Positions 9,130 through 47,068 of a stretch of DNA of 64,000 nt are shown piece after piece; position 1 is the first letter of the stretch, and every line of letters begins with the position of its first letter. The position numbers and the translations under genes were made by a program. This stretch comes from Verrucomicrobiia bacterium. Its GTDB lineage: Bacteria > Omnitrophota > Omnitrophia > Omnitrophales > Aquincolibacteriaceae. The notes under the pieces are model-generated. The model saw only the letters and a list, made by a program, of their open reading frames with translations. It searched no databases and was not told the DNA's origin. The stretch lies in contig DATJFP010000026.1 of assembly GCA_035495615.1 (NCBI GenBank), positions 15,635 through 79,634 on the forward strand, written 5' to 3'.

Positions 9130-9165
9130 AAACGGTCATTCCGTTGGACGGATGTTTTGTGAGGA

Positions 9166-9630: not shown

Positions 9631-9726
9631 CTGCTTCCCTACGGTTGCGGTGGAGAGTCCAAGTCGTTACGCAATAGCTAGTTATATTAGACAGTTTCCT
9701 CTCTTACGTCAAACGGAAACACACGG

Positions 9727-10731: not shown

Positions 10732-11141
10732 GAATGCTGGACGAATTTGAGTTGAAGCTCCGGGAGCACGGCATTGAAAAAATCCGCTTCCTGAGCGCTT
10801 AGGTGGCTTTCAGTCTTTTGTTTGAGGGCAAGAAGAAGCTCGATGATCTCACGCGCCGCGGCAAGGTCCACGTTCGCGGGCGCTCCCGGCGGTCCCTGGA
10901 TTTCACCGAGATGGAACATCACCTGATAAGCCAGCGAGTTCAAAAGCCCCATGAAAGCGGGCGATGTCTGGACTTGGGACTGCGTCTGGGGGCGCGATGC
11001 CGGTTTAGGCGGCGCAGATGCGGCGGGTTTGGATTGCGAAGGCGGGGGTGGGACTTCTTCCCCTCTGTCCTTGGCAACCTGATCCTTCCAGCTTTCGTCC
11101 ACTTTCTTTTCCGAAAACCGGACGTCTTTTGGGTATTCCAT
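10728..11141 (-). CDS. DUF1844 domain protein
   Basis: FMGLLNSLAYQVMFHLGEIQGPPG core and acidic/Pro-rich N-terminus. Confidence 0.5.
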   Translation of the reverse strand: MEYPKDVRFSEKKVDESWKDQVAKDRGEEVPPPPSQSKPAASAPPKPASRPQTQSQVQTSPAFMGLLNSLAYQVMFHLGEIQGPPGAPANVDLAAAREIIELLLALKQKTESHLSAQEADFFNAVLPELQLKFVQHS

Positions 11142-29067: not shown

Positions 29068-31600
29068 GGCCGCGGGAATTGAGCGACGCGATGTCGGCCA
29101 GCGCGCGCGGCACGGAAAAGCCGCCGGGAAGGGCAATGTATTTCGGACGCCACTGCGGCCCGAACTTTTCTTTGTAATCGCGAAGGCCTTCGAAGTTGTA
29201 GAAATATTCGCCGCGCGAGAAAATGAAAGCGCCCAGCTTGTTCCACAACGGTGCGAACTCGCGGTTCTCGAGCCCCGCAAGAGGCGCCATGCCCACGTTG
29301 AACCACTGATAGCCCTGCTCTTTTCCCCAGAGGAAAAGATTCAGGAAAAGATAATCCATGGATCCGGCCGGCGCGAGATCCGGGTCATAGCGCATCAAGT
29401 CCACGGACAGTTCGCTTTTCTCCGCGCCCAGCATGACATTGGCAAACGCCACGGGCTTGCCTCCATACCGCATGACTGCCATGGGAAAATGACGCAGATA
29501 CGACACGTCGAAAAATCCGAGCGAGAAGCCTTTTTCCTTGGTGTTTTTCTTGGCGAGCCATGCGTCGGAAATCGTCTTCAGCTCCGCCGCGCGGCCGGGC
29601 ACCGCCTCTTTATCCACCCACTCGAAGGAAGCGCCCTCTTTTTCCATGCGCCGGAGGGTGTAGCGCATTTCTTTGCGCCCGCCGCCTTCCAGTGAAAACG
29701 CGGGAAGGAAAACGCGGCCTTCCTCACCCATCTTGATCAGGGCAAATCCCGCGTCGAGATAAAGCGGCAAATACTGCGGATTCACTTCGTAGAAAACGGG
29801 CATGCCGTCGTGACGGTCGACAAGCATGCGGAAAGACGTGATCAGGTCCAGCCAGGCATTGCTGTCACCAATCGGGTCGCCGAGCGACACCCAGCTCTTG
29901 CCCTGGACGCCGTACATGATGAACGCCAGGCCGTCCCGGCTGAAAAGAAAATTCTTATCGCCGCTCAGGGCGAGATAAGAGGTGGTATTGGACGAGCGCA
30001 CAATGATGTCGAGGGCGCGGGAAAGTTCTTCCGGTGAAGGCGGATGCACTTTGATCGTGGTCGTTCGCATGAGATTGGCGGCGGAAAGGATGCCGGCAAA
30101 GGCCATGACGCCTACCACGGCGCGCATGGAGCGCGCCGCATCCCCGCGCAGGCTGAAGTGCCACCAGAGGTCGCCTGAATAATTGACGTGCTTGAACGCA
30201 AAAAGCCCCAGCCATACGGACACACTGATGACGGTCAGGACCGAAAGAAGCCATGCCGGCGAAAGCGCTTCGCCGAAGAGCGACGCCTTCCGGTAAAAAA
30301 AGGGCCGGCTCGGAACGATCAGCAGGAACATGGCAAACAGGATCACGGCTTCTTCATAGTCAAAACCTTTCATCAGGGAAAACACCATGCCGAAGCCCAG
30401 AAGGATGAGCGCGAAATAATAAGCCGCATCGAGGCGCCGCTGGATGCCCCGCGCGAGGAATAAAAGCAGGACGCCCGCGAGGCTTCCGAGAAAATGCGAA
30501 AGTTCGATGGCCGGAAGAGGCAGGAAGCGCTCCAGCATGGCAAGACGGGAACCGACCGCGGGCGTGGATCCGGAAAGCAGCAGCACCGTGCCTGCAATGA
30601 ACGTGGTCACAGAAAGCAGCGGCGGCACGAACGGCGTCAGAATCTGATTGAAGGCCGCGCCGGCCTTGGCGTATTTCCGCAGATTCTTGAATTCGAGAAC
30701 GGCCAGAAACAGCAGCGACACGAAAAGCGGGAGAAGATAATAGATAAGCCGGTAATAAAGAAGGGAAACGAAAAGCTGGTCCGAAGGGACTCGGTCGGAG
30801 AGCGCGGCCAGAAGCGTCGCTTCGAAAACACCGAGGCCGCCGGGAACCTGGCTGACCATGCCCAGCAAATGCCCGGTGATGAAAAGCCCCACGAAGAAAA
30901 GATAGGACAGCCCATGTCCCTGCGGCAGCAAGACGTAAAGGACGGCCGCGGCCAGCAGCCAATCGGCAAGCGAAAAAAAAGCCTGGCCGAGAGCAAGCCG
31001 CCCTTCCGGCAAACGCAGCTCCCAGTCTTTGATCTTAAAGGAGCGGCGAACGAAGCCGCAGGCCAAAAGATAACTCAGGACTGCAGCGAGAAAGGCAATG
31101 CCCAGCATGCGCACCATTTCGGGACTCAGAAATTGCAGGCCCGGCAAAAGACGGCCGGGAGCGGTCACGAAAGAAAAACCGAGGAGCGCGATAAGGCCCA
31201 GAAAAAAACTCACGCTGTAAAACAGGATAACTTGGGCGGTTTCCAGCGCCGAGAGTCCCCACGTGGAGTACATGCGGTAGCGTACGGCAGCTCCGGAAAG
31301 CGCGACCGCGCCGAAATTATTTCCCAGCGCGCTGGCGATAAACGAGGCCGGAAAAATCTTGGCGTACTTCATGGGCTTGCGGATGTAGCGCAGACCCAGC
31401 CATTCGTAGGACGTCAGCGCCGCGTAATTGAAGGCCGTAAACAGCGCCGCCGCCAGCAGCGGACGCTTGGGGAAATCGGCAAAGTTATGCGTGACGTCGT
31501 TAAAGTGGTGGCCGCCAAGCTCGCGGTAAAGCACCCACAATCCCCCGATAAAAAAAACGAATCCGAGGGAATGAAAAACGCGAAGAAGGAATTTTTTCAT
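29045..31600 (-). CDS. mprF: bifunctional lysylphosphatidylglycerol flippase/synthetase (phosphatidylglycerol aminoacyltransferase)
   Basis: 851 aa. ~14 TM N-terminal flippase domain plus C-terminal synthase domain (DUF2156-like, FANVMLG...YDPDLAPAGSMDYLFLNLFLWGKEQGY). Confidence 0.85.
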   Translation of the reverse strand: MKKFLLRVFHSLGFVFFIGGLWVLYRELGGHHFNDVTHNFADFPKRPLLAAALFTAFNYAALTSYEWLGLRYIRKPMKYAKIFPASFIASALGNNFGAVALSGAAVRYRMYSTWGLSALETAQVILFYSVSFFLGLIALLGFSFVTAPGRLLPGLQFLSPEMVRMLGIAFLAAVLSYLLACGFVRRSFKIKDWELRLPEGRLALGQAFFSLADWLLAAAVLYVLLPQGHGLSYLFFVGLFITGHLLGMVSQVPGGLGVFEATLLAALSDRVPSDQLFVSLLYYRLIYYLLPLFVSLLFLAVLEFKNLRKYAKAGAAFNQILTPFVPPLLSVTTFIAGTVLLLSGSTPAVGSRLAMLERFLPLPAIELSHFLGSLAGVLLLFLARGIQRRLDAAYYFALILLGFGMVFSLMKGFDYEEAVILFAMFLLIVPSRPFFYRKASLFGEALSPAWLLSVLTVISVSVWLGLFAFKHVNYSGDLWWHFSLRGDAARSMRAVVGVMAFAGILSAANLMRTTTIKVHPPSPEELSRALDIIVRSSNTTSYLALSGDKNFLFSRDGLAFIMYGVQGKSWVSLGDPIGDSNAWLDLITSFRMLVDRHDGMPVFYEVNPQYLPLYLDAGFALIKMGEEGRVFLPAFSLEGGGRKEMRYTLRRMEKEGASFEWVDKEAVPGRAAELKTISDAWLAKKNTKEKGFSLGFFDVSYLRHFPMAVMRYGGKPVAFANVMLGAEKSELSVDLMRYDPDLAPAGSMDYLFLNLFLWGKEQGYQWFNVGMAPLAGLENREFAPLWNKLGAFIFSRGEYFYNFEGLRDYKEKFGPQWRPKYIALPGGFSVPRALADIASLNSRGLKGIFSK

Positions 31601-34871: not shown

Positions 34872-36491
34872 TTATCTCCCTTTCCCGACACTAGCCGGCT
34901 CGTTATAAACGTAATTGCTCTTCGGGCCGGGGCCGTTCTTGCGTGTAGACAGCGGTGTCTCTGAAAACTTGTCCAGCTTCACGCCCACATAACCCGGAAC
35001 GCCCATTTCGGGAATGTCCAAACCTTCGACTTCGTCATCCGGCCGGACACGCAGCCCGATCGTGACATCGATCGCCTTAAGCACAATGTAGCCGATGACG
35101 CCCACGTAAACCACGTTTGCAAGAACGCCGATGCAGGAAGCCACAAACTGACTGGGATCGCCATAAAAAAGTCCGCGAACCGTTCCCGCAACGCCGTTCC
35201 AGCCGTCGCCGTACGTTCCGTCGGCGAAAAGGCCCGTGGCCAGAATGCCCCATGCGCCGTTCACGCCATGAACCGCTACGGCGCCGACGGGATCATCGAT
35301 CTTAAGCACGCCTTCAAAGAAATACACGGCTTCGACGACGAGCAGGCCCGAAACCGCGCCGATGATGCAGGCGTTCACCGAATTCACGAAAGCGCAGGGC
35401 GCCGTGATGGCGACAAGGCCCGCGAGCATACCGTTGCACATCATGCTGGGATCCGGCTTCTTGGTGCGGACTAGCCACATCCAAAGCGTTGCGACGAGCG
35501 CGCCGGTCATGGAGGCCAGCATCGTGTTCGTAGCCACGACGGAAATACGCAGGTCCGTGCCCGCCAGCGTGGAGCCGGGATTAAATCCGAACCATCCGAA
35601 GGCGAGAATGAACGTGCCGACAATGGCCATCGGGATATTATGCCCGGGAATCGCGTTGGGAGTTCCGTCCGCATTGAACTTCCCGATCCTGGGGCCAATG
35701 AGTTTCGCGCCCACGAAAGCCAGGACGCCGCCCGTCAAATGCACCACCGAAGAGCCTGCGAAGTCCACATGCCCATGGCCCAGACCGAAATTCTGGCCGA
35801 GCATGGCCAGCCAGCCGCCGCCCCAGGTCCAGTTGCCATAAATCGGATAGATGATGCTGCCCACGAAAAGGCCGTACACGACAAACGCCGAAAATTTCCA
35901 ACGCTCGGCCATGGATCCCGTAGGAATCGTTGCGGTCGTGTCCATGAACACCATCTGGAAAAGGAACATCGCGAAGATCGCGGCGTCATAGGATTGTCCC
36001 GTCAGGAAAAAGCCTTTCATGCCGAAAAGGCCGAAACTTTTTCCGAAAAGGTGCAGCGTAAACTCATGGTTCAGGACATCCACGCCTCCCAGCGTGCCAA
36101 ACGCTCCGATGCCTCCGAACATTAACGCAAACCCGCACACGTAGAAACCCAGCATGCCCAAGGGATAGATCATGAAGTTCATGGACATCGTATGCGCCGC
36201 GTTTTTTGCGCGGCAAAGCCCGGTTTCCACCATGGCAAAACCCGCTTGCATGAACATCACGAGAAATCCGGTGATTAGCGTCCATACAAAGTTAATCGAG
36301 ACCTTGTTATGGCCCACTGCGGTCGCGAGTTCTTGGAGAGTCGGCGCGCCCGCCGTGGCAGCCGTAACGTCAGCAGCAGTTCCGGTCAGTGCGCCGCTCG
36401 GATCGGCATCCTTGGCGAAAGCCAGGACCGGCACTATCAGCCCGAAAGCGAATAGCCCTAGGAAAAAAAGACTCACTAATTTCTTTTGCAT
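34872..36491 (-). CDS. amtB: ammonium transporter
   Basis: 539 aa Amt/MEP family with cleavable signal peptide and 11 TM core. Immediately upstream of glnK on the same strand. Confidence 0.85.
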   Translation of the reverse strand: MQKKLVSLFFLGLFAFGLIVPVLAFAKDADPSGALTGTAADVTAATAGAPTLQELATAVGHNKVSINFVWTLITGFLVMFMQAGFAMVETGLCRAKNAAHTMSMNFMIYPLGMLGFYVCGFALMFGGIGAFGTLGGVDVLNHEFTLHLFGKSFGLFGMKGFFLTGQSYDAAIFAMFLFQMVFMDTTATIPTGSMAERWKFSAFVVYGLFVGSIIYPIYGNWTWGGGWLAMLGQNFGLGHGHVDFAGSSVVHLTGGVLAFVGAKLIGPRIGKFNADGTPNAIPGHNIPMAIVGTFILAFGWFGFNPGSTLAGTDLRISVVATNTMLASMTGALVATLWMWLVRTKKPDPSMMCNGMLAGLVAITAPCAFVNSVNACIIGAVSGLLVVEAVYFFEGVLKIDDPVGAVAVHGVNGAWGILATGLFADGTYGDGWNGVAGTVRGLFYGDPSQFVASCIGVLANVVYVGVIGYIVLKAIDVTIGLRVRPDDEVEGLDIPEMGVPGYVGVKLDKFSETPLSTRKNGPGPKSNYVYNEPASVGKGR

Positions 36492-36683
36492 TTCGTTGGC
36501 TCCTTCTGTTTGCGAGACAAATCTGTGAATTTGACGAGGTCTTAATCAAGGTTCATGCCATCGACTTTTTTATTGATGCCATATTGATATCAATGCTTGA
36601 AACTTTCTTTTTAGAAGCAATGCTTTTATGTCACGAAAATCGGGCGGGCTTACAAAAATGAAGACAAACACAAAATTGACTGC

Positions 36684-37412
36684 TTAGGCGGGGACGGAAA
36701 TGGACGGAGGATCAATACGAAGACGATATCCCACGGCGGGCTCCGTGAGAATATAAATAGGACGCGCCGGGTCGGGCTCGAGTTTCTTGCGCAGGTTATA
36801 AATAACGACACGCAAAAGATGGTCCATCCGATGGACACTCTGATCATTATTCCAAACTTGTTTGTAGAGCTGCTCCGTTCTGACGATTTTACCCGCGCTC
36901 AAAACCAGGGCCTTCAGCACATCGTATTCCGTCGGCGTGAGATGCTGCGTGCGGTCCCCGACTTTGACGATACGCTGCTCGCCATCGAAAACAAGTTCGC
37001 CGGTCTTGAAAATCGGAGTTCCGCCTTTCGGCAGCCAGCGGCGCATGAGCGCTCGAACGCGGGCTAGAAACTCCGAAGGGCTGAAGGGCTTGGTGACATA
37101 GTCGTCGGCGCCTGCGTCAAGCGCCGCCACTTTATCCGCTTCGTCTCCGCGGACCGAGAGAATCATGATGGGTGTAGCCGCGCGCTGGCGTATCTCTCTG
37201 GCCACCTCGACTCCGCTGATATCGGGCAGTTTCAAATCCAGAATAATCGCATCAGGATGCGCTTTTACCGCGGCTTTCAAAGCCGCGCGGCCGTTAGCCG
37301 CTTCAAAGGTGCGGTACCCCTGGGATTGGAGCATTCTTTTGAGAACGCGCCTCAGCGGACGTTCGTCATCCACGATCAAAATACGCACCCCGTCTTTTTT
37401 AGGCCTAAGCAT
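36684..37412 (-). CDS. OmpR-family response regulator, KdpE-like (pair 1)
   Basis: Receiver domain (ILIVDDE...DLKLPD...DYVTKPF) plus winged-helix output (LTPTEYDVL, GYRL). Confidence 0.8.
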   Translation of the reverse strand: MLRPKKDGVRILIVDDERPLRRVLKRMLQSQGYRTFEAANGRAALKAAVKAHPDAIILDLKLPDISGVEVAREIRQRAATPIMILSVRGDEADKVAALDAGADDYVTKPFSPSEFLARVRALMRRWLPKGGTPIFKTGELVFDGEQRIVKVGDRTQHLTPTEYDVLKALVLSAGKIVRTEQLYKQVWNNDQSVHRMDHLLRVVIYNLRKKLEPDPARPIYILTEPAVGYRLRIDPPSISVPA

Positions 37413-38541
37413 GGGGCTTCTCGATGCAAAAAGGCAATTCCACAATCATTTTCGTCCCCTTTTCCGGCAGATTTTCGGCCCAGATTTTTCCTTGGTGCGC
37501 CTCAACAATTCCTTGGCAAATCGAGAGGCCGAGACCTGTACCCGGAATTTTCTGCGTTCGTTCACCGCGGTAGAACTTATCAAAGATACGATGCAATTCC
37601 CGTTCCGGAATGCCCGGGCCCTCGTCAGAAATTTCAATACGGACGCTTTGCATCGAGGTTTTGATCTCGAGCAAAACCAAAGAACCCCTGGGCGAATACT
37701 TCAGGGCATTGTCGATCACATTGACTAAGACTTTCAGCATCAGGTCGTAGTCGACGCAGGCTTCCGGGAGCTCATCCGGAAGAAGGACGCGCACACGATA
37801 TCCTTCCTCCCCCCGGGATAACTGCTGCAATGCCACTCCGATGAGATCGCTTAAGTCGCATGGTTTCCGGGTCAGCTCTAAAATGCCTCCCTCGACCTTG
37901 GTCATGTCCAATAAATTTTCAACGAGCTGACTGAGTCTCCCCGCCTCCGCGTTGGCTGTCGTAATGAGCTGCCGGCGGGAGGATTCATCCAGGTCCATGT
38001 TGTGGTGCATCAGATTCCCCAGGGCCGCAGTGATCGAGGACAACGGCGTTTTTAGATCATGAGAGATCGAGTTCAACAAAGTTGAATACAGTTTCTCCTT
38101 CTCCCGCAAAAGCTCCATCTGCTGAGTTTTCATGAGGCTGCGTCGGAGGCGCGTCGTCAAAGTGCTGATCGTGATTCCTACAATCAAGAATCCGGCCAGG
38201 GTGACGAAATCGTGCTGACTGAATGTGGCGAAGCTGAATTGCGGCGGGATGAAAAGGTAATCAAAAGCCAGCACGCTGGCGATCGAAGAGGCGATTGCGG
38301 GGCCACGGCCCCATTTGAGCGCAATAATTACGACCCCTAAGAGATAAAAAATAATGAGGTCGGTTGTGATCAGAAAGGCTTTGGCATAGGCAATCCAACC
38401 CGCAAGAAAAGCCGCTGCCACCAACATCAGGCTCAGGATATATGGCATGACGCGATCGGTTTTTTTTCCACCCCACTTCATGGTCATGAGAGCCCCTACG
38501 GATCGATAATTGTATCGAACGTCAGGGAAAGAAAATATCAA
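37405..38541 (-). CDS. sensor histidine kinase, KdpD C-terminal type (4-TM + HisKA + HATPase only)
   Basis: TM block LAFDYLFIPPQFSFATFSQHDFVTLAGFLIVG matches the KdpD membrane domain. LLNSISHDLKTPL H-box. No N-terminal KdpD/Usp domain and no GAF linker. Confidence 0.8.
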   Translation of the reverse strand: MIFSFPDVRYNYRSVGALMTMKWGGKKTDRVMPYILSLMLVAAAFLAGWIAYAKAFLITTDLIIFYLLGVVIIALKWGRGPAIASSIASVLAFDYLFIPPQFSFATFSQHDFVTLAGFLIVGITISTLTTRLRRSLMKTQQMELLREKEKLYSTLLNSISHDLKTPLSSITAALGNLMHHNMDLDESSRRQLITTANAEAGRLSQLVENLLDMTKVEGGILELTRKPCDLSDLIGVALQQLSRGEEGYRVRVLLPDELPEACVDYDLMLKVLVNVIDNALKYSPRGSLVLLEIKTSMQSVRIEISDEGPGIPERELHRIFDKFYRGERTQKIPGTGLGLSICQGIVEAHQGKIWAENLPEKGTKMIVELPFCIEKPHA

Positions 38542-38654
38542 AATTTGATCAAATCCGCAAAACCCGGCGCAAAATATTAAAAATGGGGATGTTGCTGAGA
38601 AGTCCTTTTGCTAAAATGGCCCATCACCGGACCGTGAACTGTCGGTAAACGCAC

Positions 38655-39728
38655 ATGCAGAGACAAGACTCGCCGATCAAATATCATTTTATCTGGCACG
38701 GTTATGCCCAGAGCCTTCTCATGGTGGTTCTGGTCACGCTTGGCGGGGAACTACTCAAGCGCACGATCGAGCCCATCAACCTTATCATGTTCTATCTTTT
38801 GGCCGTGATCGTCGCGGGCATCCGCTGGGGCCACGGCCCCGCTGTCCTGACTTCCGTTCTGAGCGTGCTTGCCTTTGATTTTTTTCTCATCCCTCCCTAT
38901 CTGACTTTCGGCGTCGAAGATTTCCAGTACGTCTTTACCTTCGCGGGTTTTCTCATTGTAGGTCTGATCACAAGCGAACTGATGACAAAAACAAAGGAGC
39001 AGGCGCGCAAAGCGCGGCAATTGGAACTGCTTCGAGCGACAAAAAAACTGCAGACAGCGCTCCTCAATTCAGTCTCGCACGACTTGCGCACGCCGCTGGC
39101 TTCGATCATCGGATCCATCAGCATGCTCCTGCAAGACGAGCCTTCCCTCGCCGAAGAAACCATAAAGGGGCTGCTCCGGGACGCCTATGGGGAATCGCTG
39201 CGCTTGAATCGCTTGGTCGGGAACCTCCTCGACATGACGCGGCTTGAAGCCGGCGCTCTGAATCTTTCTTTTAAATCCTGCGATTTAAGAGACGTGCTCG
39301 GCGTGGCTTTGCAGGAGCTCGCCGACAAATTGGAGCAGCGCCGAATTAAAACCCAGATCCCTCACGACCTCCCGGAAATCAGCGCGGACTTTTCTTTGAT
39401 CATGAAGGTGCTCGTGAATTTAATCGATAATGCGGCGAAATATTCGTCTGAGGACACACCGATCCGCATTGCCGCCAAAACGCAGGGCGACCGGATTAAA
39501 ATTGAAATCATGGACGAGGGAATTGGAATTGCCCCCAAAGACTTGAAACCTATCTTCGACAAATTTTACCGCGCTTCCCATCCGTCGACGGTCGAGGGTC
39601 TCGGGCTTGGGCTCTCGATAGCGAAAGGAATCGTGGAGGCGCATCATGGCGAAATCTGGGCGGAAAGCGGCGCGGGAAAAGGGACGACATTCGTCGTGCT
39701 TTTGCCTTACTCCAAGGAGACCGCATGA
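38655..39728 (+). CDS. sensor histidine kinase, KdpD C-terminal type (pair 2, paralog of 37405-38541)
   Basis: LAFDFFLIPPYLTFGVEDFQYVFTFAGFLIVG TM block. LLNSVSHDLRTPL H-box. About 50% identical to the divergent paralog. Confidence 0.8.
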   Translation: MQRQDSPIKYHFIWHGYAQSLLMVVLVTLGGELLKRTIEPINLIMFYLLAVIVAGIRWGHGPAVLTSVLSVLAFDFFLIPPYLTFGVEDFQYVFTFAGFLIVGLITSELMTKTKEQARKARQLELLRATKKLQTALLNSVSHDLRTPLASIIGSISMLLQDEPSLAEETIKGLLRDAYGESLRLNRLVGNLLDMTRLEAGALNLSFKSCDLRDVLGVALQELADKLEQRRIKTQIPHDLPEISADFSLIMKVLVNLIDNAAKYSSEDTPIRIAAKTQGDRIKIEIMDEGIGIAPKDLKPIFDKFYRASHPSTVEGLGLGLSIAKGIVEAHHGEIWAESGAGKGTTFVVLLPYSKETA

Positions 39729-40426
39729 AGGAGCAGCACGCCTTGCGCGCGTTGATTGTCGATGACGAGAAGGCCTTGCGCCGTTTTCTCAAGACCGCAC
39801 TGTCGTCCCACGGCTATCAAGTGTTCGAAGCCGGCAACGGCCTAGAGGCCCTCGAAGAATCCGTATCCTGCCATCCCGACGTCATCATCATCGACCTGGG
39901 CCTGCCCGACAAGGACGGCATCGAGGTCACGCGCGAGATCCGCCGGCGCACGAAGACGCCCATCATCATTTTGTCGGTGCGCGACCGCGAAGAGGACAAA
40001 ATCCAGGCGCTCGACGCGGGCGCGGACGACTACCTCACCAAGCCTTTCAGCGCAGGCGAATTGATGGCGCGTCTGCGGGCCGTCATCCGCCGCCTAGTTC
40101 CGCAAAACGAAACCACATTTTTTAAAGCCGGCAAATTAGCGATCGATATCGGCAAGCACACGGTGGAATTAAACGGCCGCGCCCTCCAGCTCTCGCCGAC
40201 CGAATTCGACATCGTTAAAGTGCTGGTCATGAACGCCGGAAAAGTCGTGACTCAAAAGCAGATCTTGAAAGAAGTCTGGAACAAAACCGAAGAAATGGAA
40301 GGGGCTTCCCATCTTCTCCGCGTCACCATCAGCAATCTGCGCAACAAAATCGAGCCCAATCCCGACCGTCCCACCTATCTTCTCACCGAGCCGGGCGTGG
40401 GATACCGCCTTCATACCGAAGATTGA
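39725..40426 (+). CDS. OmpR-family response regulator, KdpE-like (pair 2)
   Basis: ALIVDDEKALRRFL...DLGLPDKDG...DYLTKPF receiver. LSPTEFDIVKVL...GVGYRL winged helix. ATGA overlap with upstream kinase. Confidence 0.85.
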   Translation: MKEQHALRALIVDDEKALRRFLKTALSSHGYQVFEAGNGLEALEESVSCHPDVIIIDLGLPDKDGIEVTREIRRRTKTPIIILSVRDREEDKIQALDAGADDYLTKPFSAGELMARLRAVIRRLVPQNETTFFKAGKLAIDIGKHTVELNGRALQLSPTEFDIVKVLVMNAGKVVTQKQILKEVWNKTEEMEGASHLLRVTISNLRNKIEPNPDRPTYLLTEPGVGYRLHTED

Positions 40427-40459
40427 TTTGAAAGATTTTCCGCTTACCCATTTCCTCTT

Positions 40460-40504
40460 TTGACTCTCTTTTGACTTGGCCTTCCTTTGCCTCACGGCTA
40501 TCTT
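40460..40504 (+). promoter_or_regulatory. activator-type promoter: 11-bp-phased direct repeat TTGACTC-N4-TTGACTT, then TATCTT -10 element 22 nt downstream, no canonical -35
   Basis: Same architecture with identical spacings recurs at 43682-43726, upstream of the second riboswitch. Confidence 0.35.
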
Positions 40505-40514
40505 TTGCATAGAT

Positions 40515-40695
40515 CGAACAAGCCGAATCCGGATGACGGATCGGGGGACCCAGAGAAGGCTCCGGAGCTCGATGCTTCGGGGCGATAAGCAGCTCGAAAC
40601 TTGGTGTTTTTAGCTATCGGGGCGAATCACTGCAAAGTGAAAGGTTTCCACTCGACCTTAGCCCGACAGCTAACCCCGTAGGCGAAACGGAGAGA
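40515..40695 (+). promoter_or_regulatory. c-di-AMP riboswitch (ydaO/kimA class) in leader of ptsN-like/kimA operon
   Basis: GAAUCCGGAUGACGGAUCGGGGGACCCAG ... GGGGCGAAUC ... GUUUCCACUC ... AGCCCGACAGCUAACCCCGUAGGCGAAACGGAGAG. Conserved blocks remembered from the ydaO motif (GAAUC, ACGG..GGGGGACCCA, GGGGxGAAUC, CCCGAAGG-GCAA-like 3' end). Confidence 0.75.
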
Positions 40696-40796
40696 ACTGT
40701 GCACCGCATTTTCGAACCGCGCTTTTCAATCCTTTCCGTTTCCCCTGGTTTCACCGCCGAAGCGTTCCGCGCAGACGGGCTTTCAAGGAGGACGCC

Positions 40797-41381
40797 ATGG
40801 TTTCACTCATCGTGTTAGGAGGAGCAAAAATGCTGTCGTTTCGAAAGCAAAGGCAGGAAACATCATTAAGGCGCGGGCAGGCCGCCGCGAATCAGAGCTT
40901 AGGCCAAGCGGCGTTAAAAATTTCCGACTACCTGACGTCCGAACAGATTTGTTTTTTCCCCGAGGGAACAAACGCGCTCAGGGTATTCTCGGATTTGATA
41001 GGCACTCTCTCGATACCAAACCGGGAGTTCGCTTTGGAAGCCGTTCTTCGCAGGGAACAAGTCGGCGGGACGATCGTGGCTCCGGGAATCGCGCTTCCCC
41101 ATGCTCGGATTGACGGCACGGACCGGTTGCATTCGGCTCTCGCTCTTTGCCCAAGCGGTATCAAGCTCAGCGAAGACGAACCGGCGATCCGCCTGCTCCT
41201 CCTTTTTGTCAGCCCTTTTACCGAACTGAAAAACCACTTACGCTTTCTGGCCGCGGCAGCAGCTTTATTTCAAGACGAAATGCTTTGCGGCGACATGATC
41301 GCGCTGAAGTCGAGCGATGCCATTTTGGAAAAACTAAAACACAAAGAAATGAAAACCCATGCCGAACATTCCACAAAATAA
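40797..41381 (+). CDS. PTS EIIA type-2 protein, EIIA(Ntr)/PtsN-like
   Basis: ALEAVLRREQVGGTIVAPGIALPHARIDG...LLLLFVSPFTELKNHLRFL aligns with E. coli PtsN around the phosphorylatable His (GIAIPHG). AGGAGG RBS 7 nt upstream. Confidence 0.75.
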   Translation: MVSLIVLGGAKMLSFRKQRQETSLRRGQAAANQSLGQAALKISDYLTSEQICFFPEGTNALRVFSDLIGTLSIPNREFALEAVLRREQVGGTIVAPGIALPHARIDGTDRLHSALALCPSGIKLSEDEPAIRLLLLFVSPFTELKNHLRFLAAAAALFQDEMLCGDMIALKSSDAILEKLKHKEMKTHAEHSTK

Positions 41382-43389
41382 GTCGGTCCCTCGAAACGTC
41401 GTCATTGTGACGACCGCCATGCTGAGCTTTATCAGTTTCTGGCGGGCCGCCGCGATCGTGCTTTGCGATATTGCCTCCACGGTTTATTACATCGGCGGCA
41501 TTGCCGAGCATGCCATCGGAAAAGCCGCTCCGTGGTTTATTTTGGGCGTGATGCTCTTTTCCTACACGGTACGCGCCATTTACATCGAGTCTTGCGGCAT
41601 GTTTGTCCGCGGCGGCGTATACCGCGTCGTCAAGGAGGCTATGGGAGGAACGCTCGCCAAACTTTCCGTCTCGGCCCTGATGTTTGACTATGTCTTGACC
41701 GGGCCCATCAGCGCGGTTTCGGCAGGCCAATACATGGTCGGCCTTTTGAACACGACGTTTCCACACTTCGGCTTACCGTGGCATTTTCGCGCTGATATTT
41801 TTTCCGTTTTGTTCGCCGTCGCCGTCACGCTCTATTTCTGGTGGGAAAACGTTAAAGGCATTCCCGAGTCGAGCGACAAAGCCCTCAAAATCATGATCGC
41901 CACGACGATCATGGGCATCACCATGATCATTTGGAGCGTGACGACGCTCCTCGTGCGAGGCATCCACTGGCCCCCTTTCACTCCCGTCTTTAACGAAGAC
42001 TCGCTGGGCTGGCTGTATTCTCTGAAAGACAAGATCAAACCTCTGGGCGTCCTCGGCCTCACCATCGCCTTCGGCCATTCGCTGCTCGCCATGTCCGGCG
42101 AAGAATCCCTTGCCCAGGTCTACCGGGAAATCAAAGCGCCCAAGCTCAAGAATCTCGAAAAAGCAGCCTTCATCGTCTTTCTCTACAGCATGCTGTTGAC
42201 CACGCTGGGAAGTTTTTTCGCGATCATGATCATTCCCGATTCCGTGCGCATGAGCCAATACTCCGACAATCTGATAAGCGGCCTTGCGATGTATTTCGTC
42301 GGCCCGCTCCAACTCAGACTCCTTTATCAAGCCTTCGTGGTCTTCGTCGGATTTTTAATTCTTGCCGGCGCGGTGAATACGTCCATTATCGGGTCGAACG
42401 GGGTCCTCAATCGGCTGGGAGAAGACGGCATCCTGCCCGAGTTCCTCAGAAAGCCTCATGCCCGTTTCGGCACGTCTTCGCGGCTCATCAATATGACAGT
42501 AGGACTTCAACTGCTGACGATCGTACTCTGCCGGGGGAATATTTACGTGCTCGGTGAGGCCTATGCCTTCGGCGTCATCTGGAGCTTCGTATTCAAGGCC
42601 CTGGCCGTCCTCATCCTCCGCTATAAAGACAAGATGCCGCGCGAATGGAAAGTGCCCTTGAATATCAAAATCAAAGGCCTGGAATTCCCGGTCGGAATCG
42701 CCGCTATTTTTCTGATCCTTCTCCTTACCGCCAGCGCGAACCTTGTGACGAAAAAGGTCGCCACAATTTCCGGCTCCCTTTTTGCCCTTGTCTTTTTTGC
42801 CGTATTTGTGGCTTCGGAAAAGATCAACAAGCGGAAGCATCATGCCCTTCATGGCCAGCATGACATTCACGCGGGCCACATCGACCGGGTCAATCTGAAT
42901 GAGATCGAAAATCTCAGCCCCGAAAGTTGCGGCTGCACGAAACCCCGAAGGGTCATTGTTGCCGTACGAGGCCCGCACAGCCTCAGCCATCTCGAAAAAA
43001 CGCTCCATCAGATCCATCCGGAAGACACCGATGTCGTGGTGCTGACTTCGAAAGTCGGCAAGGGCTACCAGTTGGAAGGCGATTTGAGCCGTGTCGCGCC
43101 GGAGGAAGAAAAGCTCTTTACCCGCGTGATTGAAGTGGCAGAGAAAGTCGGCCGAACCGTCATCCTGCTGTCGGTCCCGACGAACGATCCTTACTACGTG
43201 ATGGCGCGCATCGCGCACGAGTTAAAAGCGCAGGAACTCGTGGTCGGAAAATCTGAAAAATTTTCCCCCGAAGTTCAGATGGAGGAAATCGCGATTGCCT
43301 GGGGCGCCGTGACGCCGCCGCGCCAGCATGTGCCGCCTCTGATGATTCGGATTCTGTGGGATGGGAAAGAAATGACCGAAATGTTCTAA
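41359..43389 (+). CDS. kimA: KimA-family K+ importer (APC superfamily) with C-terminal cytoplasmic Usp-like domain
   Basis: 676 aa, 12-TM APC fold. SGEESLAQV region corresponds to KimA SGVEAISN. C-terminal RRVIVAVRGPHSLSHLEK...VVVLTS...VILLSVP resembles the B. subtilis KimA cytoplasmic domain. Preceded by ydaO-class riboswitch. Confidence 0.75.
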   Translation: MPNIPQNKSVPRNVVIVTTAMLSFISFWRAAAIVLCDIASTVYYIGGIAEHAIGKAAPWFILGVMLFSYTVRAIYIESCGMFVRGGVYRVVKEAMGGTLAKLSVSALMFDYVLTGPISAVSAGQYMVGLLNTTFPHFGLPWHFRADIFSVLFAVAVTLYFWWENVKGIPESSDKALKIMIATTIMGITMIIWSVTTLLVRGIHWPPFTPVFNEDSLGWLYSLKDKIKPLGVLGLTIAFGHSLLAMSGEESLAQVYREIKAPKLKNLEKAAFIVFLYSMLLTTLGSFFAIMIIPDSVRMSQYSDNLISGLAMYFVGPLQLRLLYQAFVVFVGFLILAGAVNTSIIGSNGVLNRLGEDGILPEFLRKPHARFGTSSRLINMTVGLQLLTIVLCRGNIYVLGEAYAFGVIWSFVFKALAVLILRYKDKMPREWKVPLNIKIKGLEFPVGIAAIFLILLLTASANLVTKKVATISGSLFALVFFAVFVASEKINKRKHHALHGQHDIHAGHIDRVNLNEIENLSPESCGCTKPRRVIVAVRGPHSLSHLEKTLHQIHPEDTDVVVLTSKVGKGYQLEGDLSRVAPEEEKLFTRVIEVAEKVGRTVILLSVPTNDPYYVMARIAHELKAQELVVGKSEKFSPEVQMEEIAIAWGAVTPPRQHVPPLMIRILWDGKEMTEMF

Positions 43390-43400
43390 GCGAGAAAAGG

Positions 43401-43685
43401 ATGGATTTCTTTTTAAAATTCACTCTCATCTCTTATGCCTCGATTTTCTTTTTCACACTGGGATTGCGCCTGGCTGTTTCCAGCGAATTGGACTTGCGGG
43501 TCATCCAACTTTTTCTTATTTTTGCCGCTGTCTCGCTTCCTTTGTCTCTGACCTTCAAATCCCAGCCTTTGTATAGCCGTTTTCTGATGTCCCTGACCTG
43601 CACCTCCCTCATTCTGACCGGTTTCCGTTTCGGCAGGAAAATAAAGCGTTTGGGTGAAGAAAATCCCCTCAAACGTCATTTTTGA
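43401..43685 (+). CDS. small 3-TM membrane protein ending ...GFRFGRKIKRLG (paralog of 45622-45891)
   Basis: 94 aa. RBS GAAAAGG. Shares FFLxFxLxSYAxIFFFxxGL...FKSxPL...GFRFGRKI with the ORF following the second kimA. Confidence 0.5.
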   Translation: MDFFLKFTLISYASIFFFTLGLRLAVSSELDLRVIQLFLIFAAVSLPLSLTFKSQPLYSRFLMSLTCTSLILTGFRFGRKIKRLGEENPLKRHF

Positions 43686-43736
43686 CTCGTTTTTGACTCG
43701 TCCAATGCCCTCTCCCCGAGTATTTTGTCACGATTA

Positions 43737-43880
43737 ACGACAAGCCGAATCCCGACAGGGATCGGGGGACCCGATAAAGCGGCTCTCAAAGTTTTGAGCC
43801 ATGGGCGAATCCGCCGGAGCGCGGAGAGGTTTCCACTCAACCTCAGCCCGTCAGCTAACCCCGAAGGCGCAACGGAGAGG
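43737..43880 (+). promoter_or_regulatory. c-di-AMP riboswitch (ydaO/kimA class), second copy, abutting the kimA2 start codon
   Basis: ACAAGCCGAAUCCCGACAGGGAUCGGGGGACCCGA ... GGGCGAAUCC ... GUUUCCACUC ... AGCCCGUCAGCUAACCCCGAAGGCGCAACGGAGAGG. Co-linear with the first copy. The conserved 3' AACGGAGAGG contains the RBS for ATG at 43885. Confidence 0.75.
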
Positions 43881-43884
43881 TGTT

Positions 43885-45612
43885 ATGTCTTTGATGCTCA
43901 AAAAAGTCGATCGCCCGCGCGAATTGAAGTGGTATCAGGCGGGCGCCATGCTGTACGGCGATTGGGGAACCAGCAAGGCCTATGTGCTTGGCATCGCCTT
44001 CGCTCTTGCCGGCCACGCTTCCTGGTTTTTCCTCGGCCTCATGTCCGCGCTTACGGCCCTCATCGGCGTCTGCTACATGGTGATTTGCCGCGTGTATCCG
44101 GACGGCGGCGGCGTTTATTCTTCCGTGAAGCATCGCCACCGCCTGCTCGCGGTGATCGGCGCGTTTCTTTTGATCGCGGATTACGTGATTACCGCGTCGC
44201 TCAGCACGCTCGACGCCTTCCATTATTTCAACGCGCCGCATCCGGAAATCTGGGCCGTGGCCACGATCCTCGTCATCGGCGCCATCAACTGGCTCGGGCC
44301 CAGCAAATCCAGCACGATCGCGTCTTACATCGCCGTCGTGGCCTCGGCGGGCGCCCTGATTCTTTTCGCGGCAACCGTTCCCTCGCTCTCCCATGTGCAT
44401 CTGACCTGGCCCGGCAGCGACTGGCCCAAAAATTGGACGGTTTTCGTCGGCATCGTGCTCGCGCTTTCCGGCGTGGAAGCCATTGCCAACATGACGGGCA
44501 TCATGGAAGAGCCCGTCGAAAAAACATCCAAGCGCGCGATCTGGCCCGTGCTCCTGGAAGTTTCCGTGCTGACCTTTCTGCTTGGCATTGCCATGAATGC
44601 CATCCCGAACCTCAAAGACCATACCGAAGACATGCTCCGCGTCCTGGCCACGCATTATATCGGGCCTTGGTACGGCGCCTTCATCTCGCTCGCGTTCGGC
44701 TTCCTGCTGCTTTCGGCGACCAACACCGCCATCGGCGACCTGGTCAGCATCCAGTTTTTGATGGCCAAAGACCGCGAGCTGCCCGAAGCTTTCTCAAAGC
44801 TAAACCGCTTTGGCATGCCGGGCCTTGCGCTGATCATCGCCACGGCGATCCCCGCGGGCGTTTTAATCTTCGAGCACGATCTGGTTAAACTCGCGGCACT
44901 CTATGCCATCGGCGTGATCGGTGCCATCACGATCAATCTCGGCGCCTGCGCGACCAACTTCAAGATCCCGCTGAGCCGGAAGGAACGCATCCTCCTCGGC
45001 ATCGGCGCGGTCATCCTTTTTTTTATTGAATTGACGATCGCCTTCGAAAAGCACCACGCCCTGATTTTCGCGCTCACGGTCCTCGCGGTCGGATTGTCGC
45101 TGCGCTATGCCGCCAAGACGTTCCTGCCGATTCCGGTGCCGGCGCTTGCGCCCACGGTCAATCTGCTCACCGTTTCCGAAGCCAGAGAAATAGCGCCGCT
45201 TTACAAAAGCTCGTCGCTTGTCGCGATCCGCAGCTTTAATCCCGCGGTGCTCGACGAAGCCGCGCTGCGCGTGAAGGCCCTCAAGGAAAACGCGGTTTAT
45301 TTGAGCTACATCGAGGAAACTCCCACCGTGGCGGAATTGCCGGATGAAATCGAACCGTCCTCTCACTCCCTCGAAGTCCTGGGAGAGGCTCAGAAGGCCA
45401 TGGAGGAACGCGGGGTCACCGGCATCCCGGTCTGGCAGATCGGCGATGATCCCGGCCGCATGATCGCCAAAGCCGCGGCCGAACTTGGAGTCAATACGGT
45501 CATGATCGGGACGACGAGGCGCAGCGCGCTGGTCAACCTTCTCCGCGGCGACGTGCTGCGAACGCTCGCCCGTCATTTACCCAGAGAATGCCGCCTGGTG
45601 ATCAGCGGCTAG
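43885..45612 (+). CDS. kimA: KimA-family K+ importer, second paralog
   Basis: CYMVICRVYPDGGGVYSSVKH matches KimA YRQIIYAYPQGGGAYIVSKE. LALSGVEAIANMTG matches SGVEAISN. C-terminal Usp-like domain. Start moved from ORF-track 43801 to 43885 to clear the riboswitch. Confidence 0.8.
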   Translation: MSLMLKKVDRPRELKWYQAGAMLYGDWGTSKAYVLGIAFALAGHASWFFLGLMSALTALIGVCYMVICRVYPDGGGVYSSVKHRHRLLAVIGAFLLIADYVITASLSTLDAFHYFNAPHPEIWAVATILVIGAINWLGPSKSSTIASYIAVVASAGALILFAATVPSLSHVHLTWPGSDWPKNWTVFVGIVLALSGVEAIANMTGIMEEPVEKTSKRAIWPVLLEVSVLTFLLGIAMNAIPNLKDHTEDMLRVLATHYIGPWYGAFISLAFGFLLLSATNTAIGDLVSIQFLMAKDRELPEAFSKLNRFGMPGLALIIATAIPAGVLIFEHDLVKLAALYAIGVIGAITINLGACATNFKIPLSRKERILLGIGAVILFFIELTIAFEKHHALIFALTVLAVGLSLRYAAKTFLPIPVPALAPTVNLLTVSEAREIAPLYKSSSLVAIRSFNPAVLDEAALRVKALKENAVYLSYIEETPTVAELPDEIEPSSHSLEVLGEAQKAMEERGVTGIPVWQIGDDPGRMIAKAAAELGVNTVMIGTTRRSALVNLLRGDVLRTLARHLPRECRLVISG

Positions 45613-45621
45613 AGGTTCGAA

Positions 45622-45891
45622 ATGCCGGTTTCGAATATCGCTTTCTTCCTGAGGTTTGGGCTCACCTCGTATGCCGCCATTTTCTTCTTTGCCGCGGGGC
45701 TCGGGTTTGCCTTGTCTTATGCCGGCAGCCTGAAACACACGGATTTCGGCCTGCTTTTTTTCTTCATGGCCGCGGCCCTGTGTTTCAGTTTCAAGTCCGA
45801 ACCCCTTCAAGGCCGCCTGATCATCGCCGCCATCTGGGCCTCGATCGTTTGGGCCGGCTTCCGCTTCGGCCGGAAGATCCGGATGCGCTGA
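45622..45891 (+). CDS. small 3-TM membrane protein ending ...GFRFGRKIRMR (paralog of 43401-43685)
   Basis: 89 aa. RBS AGAGG. Conserved blocks shared with 43401-43685. Confidence 0.5.
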   Translation: MPVSNIAFFLRFGLTSYAAIFFFAAGLGFALSYAGSLKHTDFGLLFFFMAAALCFSFKSEPLQGRLIIAAIWASIVWAGFRFGRKIRMR

Positions 45892-46045: not shown

Positions 46046-47068
46046 ATGTCGACAAACGATCAGCCCTCAACTGCGCCCGCGGGCAAAAAACCCAAGATCA
46101 ACGCCCGCTTTCTCAGCCTGGGCAATTTGCTTCTGCCCGTCCTTCTGGTCATCATCGCGCTTCACTGGGGAGACGGCCGGGTTTTTGCCGAGCTGCTGCT
46201 GAAGATCAAGCCCCAATGGCTTGTCCTGGCCGCCCTCTGCCAGATCGGGACTTACCTCTGCGTAACCATGATCTGGCGCACGGTGTTCCGCCGCTGCGGC
46301 ATCCCCATCCGCTCTTATCAATTGTTTGCGCTCAGCATTGCCAAGCTTTTCTTCGACCAGACCCTGCCTTCCTTCGGCGTGAGCGGCAGCGTCATGGCCA
46401 TGCGCGGGTTCATCCGCCGGCAAAGCTCCAAGGGCGCGGCCGCCGCGGCGGTCATCATCAATACCACGAGCCGCTACCTGCCCTACGTGCTGCTGTTCAC
46501 GGCGGCCCTGGCCATCCTCTGGAAACACCACATGCTCAGCAAGCCGCTGGAATACACGGCGGCTCTTTTCATCGCAGTCATCGTCATGCTCATGGCCGCG
46601 ATCCCCGCGCTCGTGCAGCTGGCCATCAATCATAAAACACCGTCCTGGGTGCACCGGTTTGGCTGGCTCGAGAAGGTCCTGAAAACCTTGCGCGAGATCC
46701 CGGTCGAGATCATTGGGGACTGGCGCCTGTGGCTTGTGGCGTGCCTTGCGAACGCCTGCATTTTTCTGCTGGATTCGACGACGCTTTGGAGTCTGTTGTC
46801 GTCCCTCGGCATCGGGACCCATCCCTGGTTCCACGCCTACGTCAGCGACATGGTGTCGTCCGTCGTGACCGACCTGGCCATGGTGCCGGGAAAAATCGGG
46901 GTTTTCGAAGGAAGCTCCGTCACCATGCTGCGGCTCTTCAAATATCCGCTCGAAGAAGCCGTGGCCGCGACGCTCCTTTTCCGCGGCTTCACCTACTGGC
47001 TGCCCATGATCCCGGGATTTATTATCACCCGCCGCGAGCTCGGACAGCACCCTCACGAATCCCGCTGA
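46046..47068 (+). CDS. flippase-like domain membrane protein (LPG_synthase_TM / UPF0104 family), second stand-alone copy
   Basis: 340 aa polytopic. Same family pattern as 9727-10731 and the MprF N-terminal domain. Confidence 0.65.
   Translation: MSTNDQPSTAPAGKKPKINARFLSLGNLLLPVLLVIIALHWGDGRVFAELLLKIKPQWLVLAALCQIGTYLCVTMIWRTVFRRCGIPIRSYQLFALSIAKLFFDQTLPSFGVSGSVMAMRGFIRRQSSKGAAAAAVIINTTSRYLPYVLLFTAALAILWKHHMLSKPLEYTAALFIAVIVMLMAAIPALVQLAINHKTPSWVHRFGWLEKVLKTLREIPVEIIGDWRLWLVACLANACIFLLDSTTLWSLLSSLGIGTHPWFHAYVSDMVSSVVTDLAMVPGKIGVFEGSSVTMLRLFKYPLEEAVAATLLFRGFTYWLPMIPGFIITRRELGQHPHESR

Follow-up and report, generated by a model that had tools for sequence, protein, structure and literature searches.

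Putative two-layer control of KimA-like potassium transporter operons by KdpE-type repeats and c-di-AMP riboswitches in an Omnitrophota contig

Our analysis of a 64-kb window of a 96-kb contig assigned to the Omnitrophota (DATJFP010000026.1, assembly GCA_035495615.1; proteins HTL47057-47065), together with about 9 kb beyond the right end of the window, points to a locus at 36684-45891 that probably serves potassium (K+) uptake and in which each of two transporter operons is predicted to be under two layers of control. The first would be a KdpE-like response regulator acting at a direct repeat in the promoter, and the second a cyclic di-AMP (c-di-AMP) riboswitch in the leader of the mRNA. Every element named in a preliminary description of this DNA was recovered in place with the open reading frame (ORF) list, Pfam, NCBIfam and Rfam, and the features are as follows, by position in the window (HK, histidine kinase; RR, response regulator; T, transporter; S, small protein).

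36684 to 37412, minus strand: RR1, OmpR/KdpE-like response regulator of 242 residues (Response_reg and Trans_reg_C)
37405 to 38487, minus strand: HK1, minimal KdpD-like kinase; the ORF reaches a TTG at 38541, and translation probably starts from the ATG at 38487
38509 to 38553, minus strand: putative HK1-RR1 promoter, TTTGAT-CAAAT-TTTGAT (38553-38537), 22 nt, TACAAT (38514-38509); zero-mismatch match to TTTGAY-N5-YTTGAY
38655 to 39728, plus strand: HK2, minimal KdpD-like kinase of 357 residues (DUF4118, HisKA and HATPase_c)
39725 to 40426, plus strand: RR2, KdpE-paralogue response regulator of 233 residues (Response_reg and Trans_reg_C)
40459 to 40504, plus strand: putative unit-1 promoter from the pattern scan, TTTGAC-TCTCT-TTTGAC (40459-40475), 23 nt, TATCTT (40499-40504)
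40511 to 40699, plus strand: c-di-AMP riboswitch 1 (RF00379, 75.1 bits, E=1.3e-15, full-length model match)
40699 to 40818, plus strand: possible upstream ORF of 39 codons with a GTG start, 4 nt past the GGAGAG tail of the aptamer, stopping within the start of the EIIA gene
40797 to 41381, plus strand: EIIA_2-domain protein of 194 residues (PF00359, 49.6 bits), overlapping the start of T1 by 23 nt
41359 to 43389, plus strand: T1, KimA-like transporter of 676 residues with a Usp-like C-terminal domain (AA_permease_2, E=4e-50)
43401 to 43685, plus strand: S1, small protein of 94 residues with three hydrophobic segments by hydropathy and no Pfam or NCBIfam match
43681 to 43726, plus strand: putative unit-2 promoter from the pattern scan, TTTGAC-TCGTT-TTTGAC (43681-43697), 23 nt, TATTTT (43721-43726)
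43733 to 43884, plus strand: c-di-AMP riboswitch 2 (RF00379, 76.3 bits)
43885 to 45612, plus strand: T2, KimA/KUP-like transporter of 575 residues with a Usp C-terminal domain (PF00582, residues 483-594 of the longer ORF)
45622 to 45891, plus strand: S2, small membrane protein of 89 residues with three hydrophobic segments (ORF list, hydropathy)

The genes fall into two paralogous kinase-regulator pairs in divergent orientation, followed by two tandem units on the plus strand, unit 1 with EIIA, T1 and S1 and unit 2 with T2 and S2, each opened by a riboswitch. This is the arrangement that the preliminary description had proposed, and it was borne out by the Pfam domains, by the identities of the pairs (46% for HK1/HK2 and 54% for RR1/RR2) and by the Rfam scores of the two aptamers. 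S1 and S2 are 43% identical and T1 and T2 only 24%. By their sequences, the kinase and regulator pairs are old paralogues and not recent copies. The stop codon of S1 sits within the first half-site of the unit-2 repeat.

The first layer of control is suggested by the leaders of the two units. The repeats TTTGACTCTCTTTTGAC (40459-40475) and TTTGACTCGTTTTTGAC (43681-43697) are each followed, after a gap of exactly 23 nt, by a hexamer (TATCTT and TATTTT, respectively), and the Rfam riboswitch model begins about 7 nt past it. The pattern TTGAC-N6-TTGAC occurs three times in the 64 kb, at 40460, 43682 and 41684, as against an expectation of 0.08, and with the shared repeat and the equal gap this upholds the earlier statement that both units have the same promoter architecture. 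A relaxed search with TTTGAY-N5-YTTGAY yielded a third site free of mismatches, TTTGATCAAATTTTGAT (38553-38537, minus strand), 22 nt upstream of TACAAT and just upstream of the in-frame ATG of HK1 at 38487, which is the reason for placing the start of HK1 there. The HK1-RR1 operon is thus probably part of the same regulon and autoregulated. A consensus scan of the unit leaders found no sigma-70 promoter with a spacer of 16-18 nt and, because there is no usable -35 element, both unit promoters look activator-dependent. In the KdpE site of Escherichia coli, TTTATA-N5-TTTACA, a 5-bp spacer lies between two T-rich direct repeats of 6 bp (PMC3264566); the repeats described here have an identical half-site geometry, with TTTGAC as the half-site instead of TTTAYA. 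Two sets of matches were rejected as operators: the copy at 41684 is where the T1 gene encodes the conserved motif MFDYVLT, and it is found again in the coding sequences of homologues, and the near-matches inside HK coding sequence (38265 in the window and 1353 in locus L090) were set aside for the same reason.

The kinases and regulators encoded beside these promoters resemble, at a distance, KdpD and KdpE. Both kinases contain only DUF4118, HisKA and HATPase_c, in the order seen in KdpD, and have no KdpD N-terminal (PF02702), Usp or GAF domain according to Pfam; in the canonical KdpD of locus L091 a GAF domain lies between DUF4118 and the kinase core. KdpD is the best NCBIfam model for both, with its C-terminal part only and at 220 bits (HK1) and 262 bits (HK2) against a cut-off of 1123, so that neither reaches the equivalog score. 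Likewise, KdpE is the best model for RR1 (204 bits) and RR2 (224 bits), both under the cut-off of 325. HK2 shares 60-67% identity with kinases encoded ahead of T1 orthologues in L004, L089 and L090, and 40% with the C-terminal part of a full KdpD. RR2 shares 78-79% identity with the T1-linked regulators in these three loci and 68% with a second regulator in L091, but only 45% with the KdpE encoded beside kdpFABC in that locus. RR1 is also 45% identical to this bona fide KdpE; a metagenome scan with RR1, which was swamped by generic OmpR-family patterns, gave no close orthologue (best match, 52%) and no T2-partner regulator.

Comparison with relatives gives the repeats a wider context. The T1 family was surveyed in 80 genome loci, with the window clade defined by a T1 at least 76% identical, and the repeat recurs upstream of T1 or T2 orthologues on four other contig types; the distance from repeat to -10 hexamer is 22-23 nt in every window-clade leader with a readable -10. 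L003/L004 and L090 have the order HK-RR-[TTTGAC-N5-CTTGAC, 23 nt, TAATTT]-T1-S, with no riboswitch, and L089 has HK-RR-[TTTGAC-N5-CTTGAC, 23 nt, TAAATT]-riboswitch-T1-S. In L085, whose T2 orthologue is 84% identical, the order is [TTTGAC-GCGTT-TTTGAC, 22 nt, TAAGCT]-riboswitch-T2, the repeat being kept and the spacer diverged. The order in L091 is kdpA-kdpB-kdpC-kdpD (894 residues, full length)-kdpE-S-RR-[two TTGAC-N6-TTGAT units]-riboswitch-EIIA-T1. Here the kdp promoter (1440-1500) and the S promoter (9925-9985) share a near-identical TTTAAT-N5-TTTAAT...TTTTAATTAGC, unlike the TTGAC/TTGAT repeats ahead of EIIA-T1. This would place S, and probably also the orphan regulator downstream of it, in the classic KdpE regulon, and points to a cascade in which KdpE would act on the second regulator and this in turn on EIIA-T1. 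The second regulator (10299-10970), as called, starts with MVDKEK and has no N-terminal acidic 'DDE' pocket, so that either its start is miscalled or its receiver is atypical.

Beyond the window clade, six loci (L023, L048, L056, L062, L077 and L079) have a DUF4118 kinase and a regulator close to T1, mostly adjacent and no more than about 2 kb away; in L052 the distance is 8 kb. Among the Acidobacteriota, T1 stands beside more distant KdpDE-like pairs, and L052 (HK-RR...kdpA-kdpB-kdpC-kdpD_N-T1, with a split KdpD) and L062 (HK-RR-T1...kdpA) also contain kdp genes. The acidobacterial T1 leaders carry repeats of the TTTACG/TTTATG type (TTTAYR) with an 11-bp period, which is the type of the E. 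coli KdpE site (PMC3264566). The type of operator thus appears to co-vary with the type of regulator, and this is the strongest available argument that the regulators read the repeats. In a background check on 80 loci retrieved with a generic KdpE-like query, at least 20 contained kdpABC and three a KimA-like or APC-type gene. Further loci bear riboswitches or accessory genes: in six loci, which belong to Elusimicrobiota, Deltaproteobacteria and Binatia, the gene immediately upstream of T1 encodes an EIIA protein, and in at least nine more loci, from several phyla, a c-di-AMP riboswitch confirmed by Rfam precedes T1 homologues. The number of T1 genes linked to a riboswitch is a lower bound, given that a home-made covariance model (R1, from three sequences) scored real riboswitches at 16-34 bits, compared with 72-90 for Rfam.

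Several other arrangements were seen among the relatives. Short tandem repeats flank the acidobacterial T1 leaders in L023 (9470-9590), L056 (8100-8270 and 9760-9885) and L052 (9812-9850); they consist of inverted GTGAACA/TGTTCAC runs, CCTGCCT runs and three copies of the 11-mer AGCTAATCCCA, and lie just upstream of the KdpE-type repeats. In L009, L011, L013-L016 and L020 (about 8360-9690, minus strand; Deltaproteobacteria/Binatia-type), a divergent receiver-domain regulator of about 440 residues, possibly NtrC-like, is found ahead of the T1 homologue and would be a third control mode of the transporter family. T1-family genes form tandem pairs of adjoining paralogues in some loci of Acidobacteriota/Bryobacterales (L025, L035, L059, L061, L065 and L083), with a riboswitch before the first gene in L025, L059, L065 and L083. 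A metagenome contig (L095, 6171-12971) combines kdpC/kdpA, a distant APC/KimA-like gene and two convergent pairs of DUF4118 kinase and regulator, and is thus a further example of Kdp-type two-component systems in duplicate near a transporter that is not an ATPase. The intergenic region of L096 held nothing informative, and L065, from a contig labelled Verrucomicrobiia, has an Rfam match to the 5' ureB small RNA (408-701; 81.6 bits against 40), which probably reflects the ureB gene region rather than the Helicobacter small RNA.

An alternative that we regard as unlikely is that the kinase-regulator pairs are ordinary split or truncated KdpDE systems serving a kdpFABC operon elsewhere, that the K+ genes are loosely clustered, and that the repeats are bound by another factor or are promoter elements. 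The names KdpD and KdpE given to these proteins in IMG agree with it, as do the split KdpD of L052, where separate genes for the N-terminal part and the DUF4118 kinase accompany kdpABC, the L085 repeat with no two-component system nearby, and the extent of our inspection, which was the 64-kb window and some 9 kb next to it out of a contig of 96 kb. Within that span, no homologue of KdpA, KdpB, KdpC or the KdpD N-terminal domain was found among all window ORFs of at least 40 residues, and there were no kdp genes in the approximately 9 kb past the right end; the earlier observation that the window has no kdpFABC therefore stands, on this homologue search and on the Pfam assignments of the large ORFs. 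Against an ordinary KdpDE system, members of the RR2 clade (68-79% identity) are always found beside T1, compared with the 45% identity of RR2 to the L091 KdpE next to kdpFABC, and in L091 the kdp and S promoters carry TTTAAT-N5-TTTAAT where the EIIA-T1 promoter carries TTGAC/TTGAT. The geometry of the repeats is of the OmpR/KdpE type, they come with no correctly spaced -35 element, and the same repeat is borne by the HK1-RR1 promoter itself.

What has to be revised is the extent of the change. According to the preliminary description, Kdp-type circuitry had been rewired onto KimA-type symporters, and the recurrence of a KdpE-paralogue two-component system and of a repeat with KdpE geometry beside T1 orthologues makes this reading well supported by comparative evidence. 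It needs a caveat, because a full Kdp system is retained beside the module in relatives: a departure from kdpFABC is not claimable from 64 kb and the adjoining 9 kb, and in related genomes the module is located beside or inside kdp loci. It would be better described as an extension of the KdpE regulon in which a dedicated paralogue has split off, rather than as a replacement of Kdp.

The second layer of control would be provided by the riboswitches. Both aptamers cover the whole of the RF00379 model (1-134/134), at scores that compare with a gathering score of 38 bits. The 3' tail of riboswitch 2, GGAGAGG, is at the same time the Shine-Dalgarno sequence of T2, whose ATG (43885) follows 4 nt later, and the same arrangement is present in L085 and L089. 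No intrinsic terminator was found between either aptamer and its downstream gene. Because the ribosome-binding site of T2 is the aptamer tail and no terminator follows, riboswitch 2 most likely blocks initiation of translation when c-di-AMP is high. For unit 1, the GTG of the 39-codon ORF is spaced from the aptamer tail exactly as the ATG of T2 is from riboswitch 2, and this short ORF may, speculatively, act as a relay for riboswitch control. A comparable ORF of 23 codons with an ATG start is present at the 3' end of the aptamer in L091 (11275-11346); a short ORF that uses the GAGAG tail of the aptamer as its Shine-Dalgarno sequence therefore occurs in both inspected EIIA leaders with a long gap between aptamer and EIIA.

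The proposed targets of this control, T1 and T2, are by predicted function distant K+/H+ symporters of the KimA/KUP type. A profile built from 39 members of the two families matched KimA in the PDB (6S3K) with E=9e-27 over the whole membrane domain, and the next entry was a cationic amino-acid transporter at E=0.011. KimA entries were the top three Foldseek matches for the AlphaFold models of both T1 and T2 (8b70, 8b71 and 6s3k in the case of T2), in alignments of about 600-670 columns, which therefore include the cytosolic domain. In KimA, D36, Y43, T121, S125, T230 and Y377 surround the occluded K+, D117 lies in the cytoplasmic tunnel and E233 has a role in proton coupling; D36, Y43 and E233 are essential and T230A is tolerated (PMC6994465). 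In HMMER alignments the counterparts of these eight residues are D37, Y44, D110, T114, S118, S246, E249 and Y402 in T1, and D26, Y33, D99, T103, S107, S195, E198 and Y340 in T2. All eight positions are invariant columns in the 39 sequences, and the sole substitution relative to KimA is Ser for T230. The first transmembrane segment (TM1) of T2 carries 'LYGD', the VFGD/IYGD motif of KUP proteins, which KimA does not have. The C-terminal domain is Usp-like: the Pfam Usp model matches T2, and the family profile touches the Usp-type protein MJ0577. Usp-like and PPAT-like folds can both be counted, in a broad sense, among the nucleotide-binding alpha/beta domains. The cytosolic domain of KimA has been described as PPAT-like, with Arg337 contacting c-di-AMP (PMC10284832). 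The earlier claim of two kimA genes is thus supported as to type, by profile, Foldseek and residues, and has to be qualified in that T1 and T2 are two distant paralogues with 24% identity.

A different substrate for T1 and T2, such as an amino acid, a polyamine, an osmolyte or NH4+, with c-di-AMP control forming part of general osmoregulation, seems to us quite improbable. Its basis is in part one of nomenclature, as public annotation, apart from 'universal stress protein', offers only 'amino acid transporter' or 'APC family permease' for these proteins and T1 has its match to AA_permease_2 (E=4e-50); KimA itself, however, is deposited as 'APC family permease'. It can also draw on the ammonium transporter gene that adjoins RR1 and on the T2 orthologue of L087 located between amt-glnB operons. 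Moreover, c-di-AMP riboswitches also control genes unrelated to K+. On the other side, KimA is about 25 orders of magnitude ahead of any amino-acid transporter as a match to the family profile, and the homology search therefore gave no support for assigning T1 and T2 to an APC subfamily that transports something other than K+, an outcome that the preliminary description had left to be checked. The K+-coordinating and proton-coupling residues are invariant, T2 has the KUP-type 'YGD' in TM1, and T1 homologues are embedded in kdp loci.

Two further genes accompany the putative symporters. The EIIA protein scores 49.6 bits with PF00359, against a cut-off of 27, and 38-42 bits with PtsN models, and the phospho-acceptor His of its PHARxxG motif is invariant in all eight of the eight T1-linked orthologues. 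Calling it PtsN-like, as had been done, holds for the EIIA_2 fold and the active site but not for orthology, given a score of 42.4 bits against the PtsN cut-off of 138.7 and the absence of rpoN and of genes for partners in the nitrogen phosphotransferase system (PTS-Ntr) among the annotated window ORFs. The S family comprises 29 clusters among 5.8 billion proteins; its members have three hydrophobic segments and a basic GFRFGRKI tail, and the gene is located directly past T1/T2 or directly past kdpE in every member locus inspected. From this conserved adjacency, we propose that EIIA and S could be post-translational partners of the transporter.

Outside the locus, the neighbours in the window are housekeeping genes, an ammonium transporter gene and MprF-like genes. 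The ammonium transporter gene (34872-36491, minus strand) is directly downstream of RR1, and its leader (36492-36683) has a sigma-54-like TGGCAT-N5-TTGAT element. HK1-RR1 was considered as a controller of this amt gene and the idea was dropped, since the leader is of the sigma-54-like type and the only repeat has one mismatch (36530-36546) and is on the strand opposite to amt. In L087 (8276-13680), a T2 orthologue with 77% identity and no riboswitch lies between two amt-glnB (P-II) operons. These amt neighbours may reflect a physiological link between K+ and NH4+, or NH4+ as an alternative substrate. An MprF-like lysyl-phosphatidylglycerol synthase of 851 residues (29045-31600, minus strand) is encoded upstream of the K+ locus, and a stand-alone LPG_synthase_TM protein (46046-47068, plus strand) directly past S2. 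The GC content is 0.526-0.539 over 36-44 kb, the region of the two-component genes and unit 1, against 0.57-0.59 in both flanks, with 0.594 in the T2 region (44-46 kb), and part of the locus may thus have been acquired horizontally. That the whole is a recently acquired or decaying island, with duplicated parts that are redundant or partly non-functional, would agree with this dip in GC (0.526-0.539 over 36-44 kb against flanks of 0.57-0.59) and with RR1 having no close orthologue (best metagenome match, 52%), and is nonetheless very improbable, as no ORF is broken, the catalytic and phospho-acceptor motifs are complete, the score of each aptamer is about double the gathering threshold and the paralogues are old (24-54% identity).

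A number of observations weigh against the two-layer K+-uptake locus that we propose, or against parts of it. The link between repeat and response regulator is correlative: L085 has the repeat with no two-component system on its contig of 11.6 kb, which extends about 5 kb to each side of the gene, the repeat was not found at the HK promoters of L089, L090 and L004, and which of RR1 and RR2 belongs to which promoter is not derivable from sequence. As for the transporters, pairwise phmmer searches of the PDB with T1 and T2 gave no match to KimA at E<=0.01, their AlphaFold2 models are of moderate confidence only (predicted local distance difference test scores of 75 and 79), and the position of the c-di-AMP-contacting Arg337 of KimA is occupied by Glu in both. 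In unit 1, EIIA has its own ribosome-binding site about 90 nt past the aptamer, and in that leader we found neither a terminator nor an obvious sequestering helix.

We nevertheless favour two-layer control, which could work as follows. K+ limitation would be sensed by the minimal kinases through their KdpD-type membrane domain and kinase core; the kinases would phosphorylate the KdpE paralogues (RR2, and probably RR1), which would bind the TTTGAC repeats and, from a site overlapping the -35 position, activate the promoters of both units and that of HK1-RR1 in the manner of a class-II activator of the OmpR family. Binding of c-di-AMP to the leader aptamer would shut expression, in the case of T2 by blocking translation initiation and in unit 1 possibly, and more speculatively, through translation of the upstream ORF. 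The second-messenger input would be placed in cis on the mRNA instead of in the Usp domain of the kinase, because HK1 and HK2 have no such domain. The net logic would be that transporters are made only if the kinase signals a need for K+ and c-di-AMP is low. A more ambitious, and clearly tentative, proposal is that of a self-contained K+ module with three inputs, in which the minimal kinases are sufficient K+ sensors for a TTTGAC-specific KdpE paralogue, the c-di-AMP input, which in Firmicutes is received by the Usp domain of KdpD, has been relocated to the target mRNAs in the form of a translational riboswitch, and EIIA, being phosphorylatable, and S are regulatory or structural partners of the KimA-like symporters, by analogy with PtsN-TrkA and KdpF-KdpABC.

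The riboswitch, the KimA/KUP symporter, the KdpDE-like system and the EIIA fold are all of known kinds or similar to known ones. In Bacillus subtilis, KimA (YdaO) is a K+/H+ symporter of the KUP family; it is under the control of the ydaO/c-di-AMP riboswitch, and c-di-AMP inhibits it. Like KimA, T1 and T2 have a LeuT-fold membrane domain followed by an alpha/beta domain of the nucleotide-binding type, the eight residues, and an RF00379 riboswitch upstream. Unlike KimA, to which they are about 16-19% identical, they have a Usp-like rather than a PPAT-like C-terminal domain and do not keep Arg337; their riboswitch looks translational instead of terminator-based, and the locus further includes a two-component input and genes for EIIA and S. 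With the E. coli KdpD/KdpE system the locus shares the order of kinase and regulator, the DUF4118 and HisKA/HATPase core, an OmpR-type regulator with KdpE as best model and 6-bp repeats with a 5-bp spacer. It differs in kinases devoid of the N-terminal, Usp and GAF domains, in scores far under the equivalog cut-offs, in a TTTGAC instead of a TTTAYA half-site, and in apparent targets that are KimA-like symporter operons and not a P-type ATPase, with no kdpFABC within the window. In E. coli, EIIA-Ntr (PtsN) regulates KdpD and TrkA. The EIIA protein described here is likewise an EIIA_2-fold protein with a phosphorylatable His that is genetically tied to K+ uptake; unlike PtsN, it is co-transcribed with, and overlaps, a transporter gene, is not in an rpoN operon and is not an orthologue by score.

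Convergence of c-di-AMP and Kdp-type regulation on the expression of high-affinity K+ uptake has precedents, as a c-di-AMP riboswitch is located upstream of kdpFABC in Bacillus thuringiensis (PMC6488665) and the KdpD of Staphylococcus aureus binds c-di-AMP through its Usp domain (PMC4686210). What sets the present locus apart from both is that the two inputs would be in series on one leader, an RR-type repeat and then an aptamer, and that the target is a symporter. Our search of the literature, including the Caulobacter KdpE regulon, found no description of a truncated-kinase KdpDE paralogue dedicated to KimA-like symporters, of a serial RR operator and c-di-AMP aptamer on one leader, or of EIIA and S accessories with KimA-like symporters, in agreement with the earlier impression that the architecture is new.

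These results suggest, first, a probable K+/H+ symport function for two large and widespread families (more than 8000 homologues of T1 and T2) that databases name 'amino acid permease' or 'universal stress protein', with members in Omnitrophota/Verrucomicrobiota-like metagenome-assembled genomes, Elusimicrobiota, Acidobacteriota, Binatia and Deltaproteobacteria. Second, the KdpDE paradigm would extend beyond the Kdp ATPase, to a minimal paralogous system with its own operator that appears dedicated to KimA-like symporters. Third, a leader that carries first an activator site for a two-component system and then a second-messenger riboswitch would be a natural serial AND gate, which could be reused in synthetic biology, and EIIA and S would be two candidate accessory proteins of KUP-type transporters. 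Finally, if minimal DUF4118 kinases do sense K+ alone, this would bear on the long-running question of where the K+-sensing site of KdpD resides.

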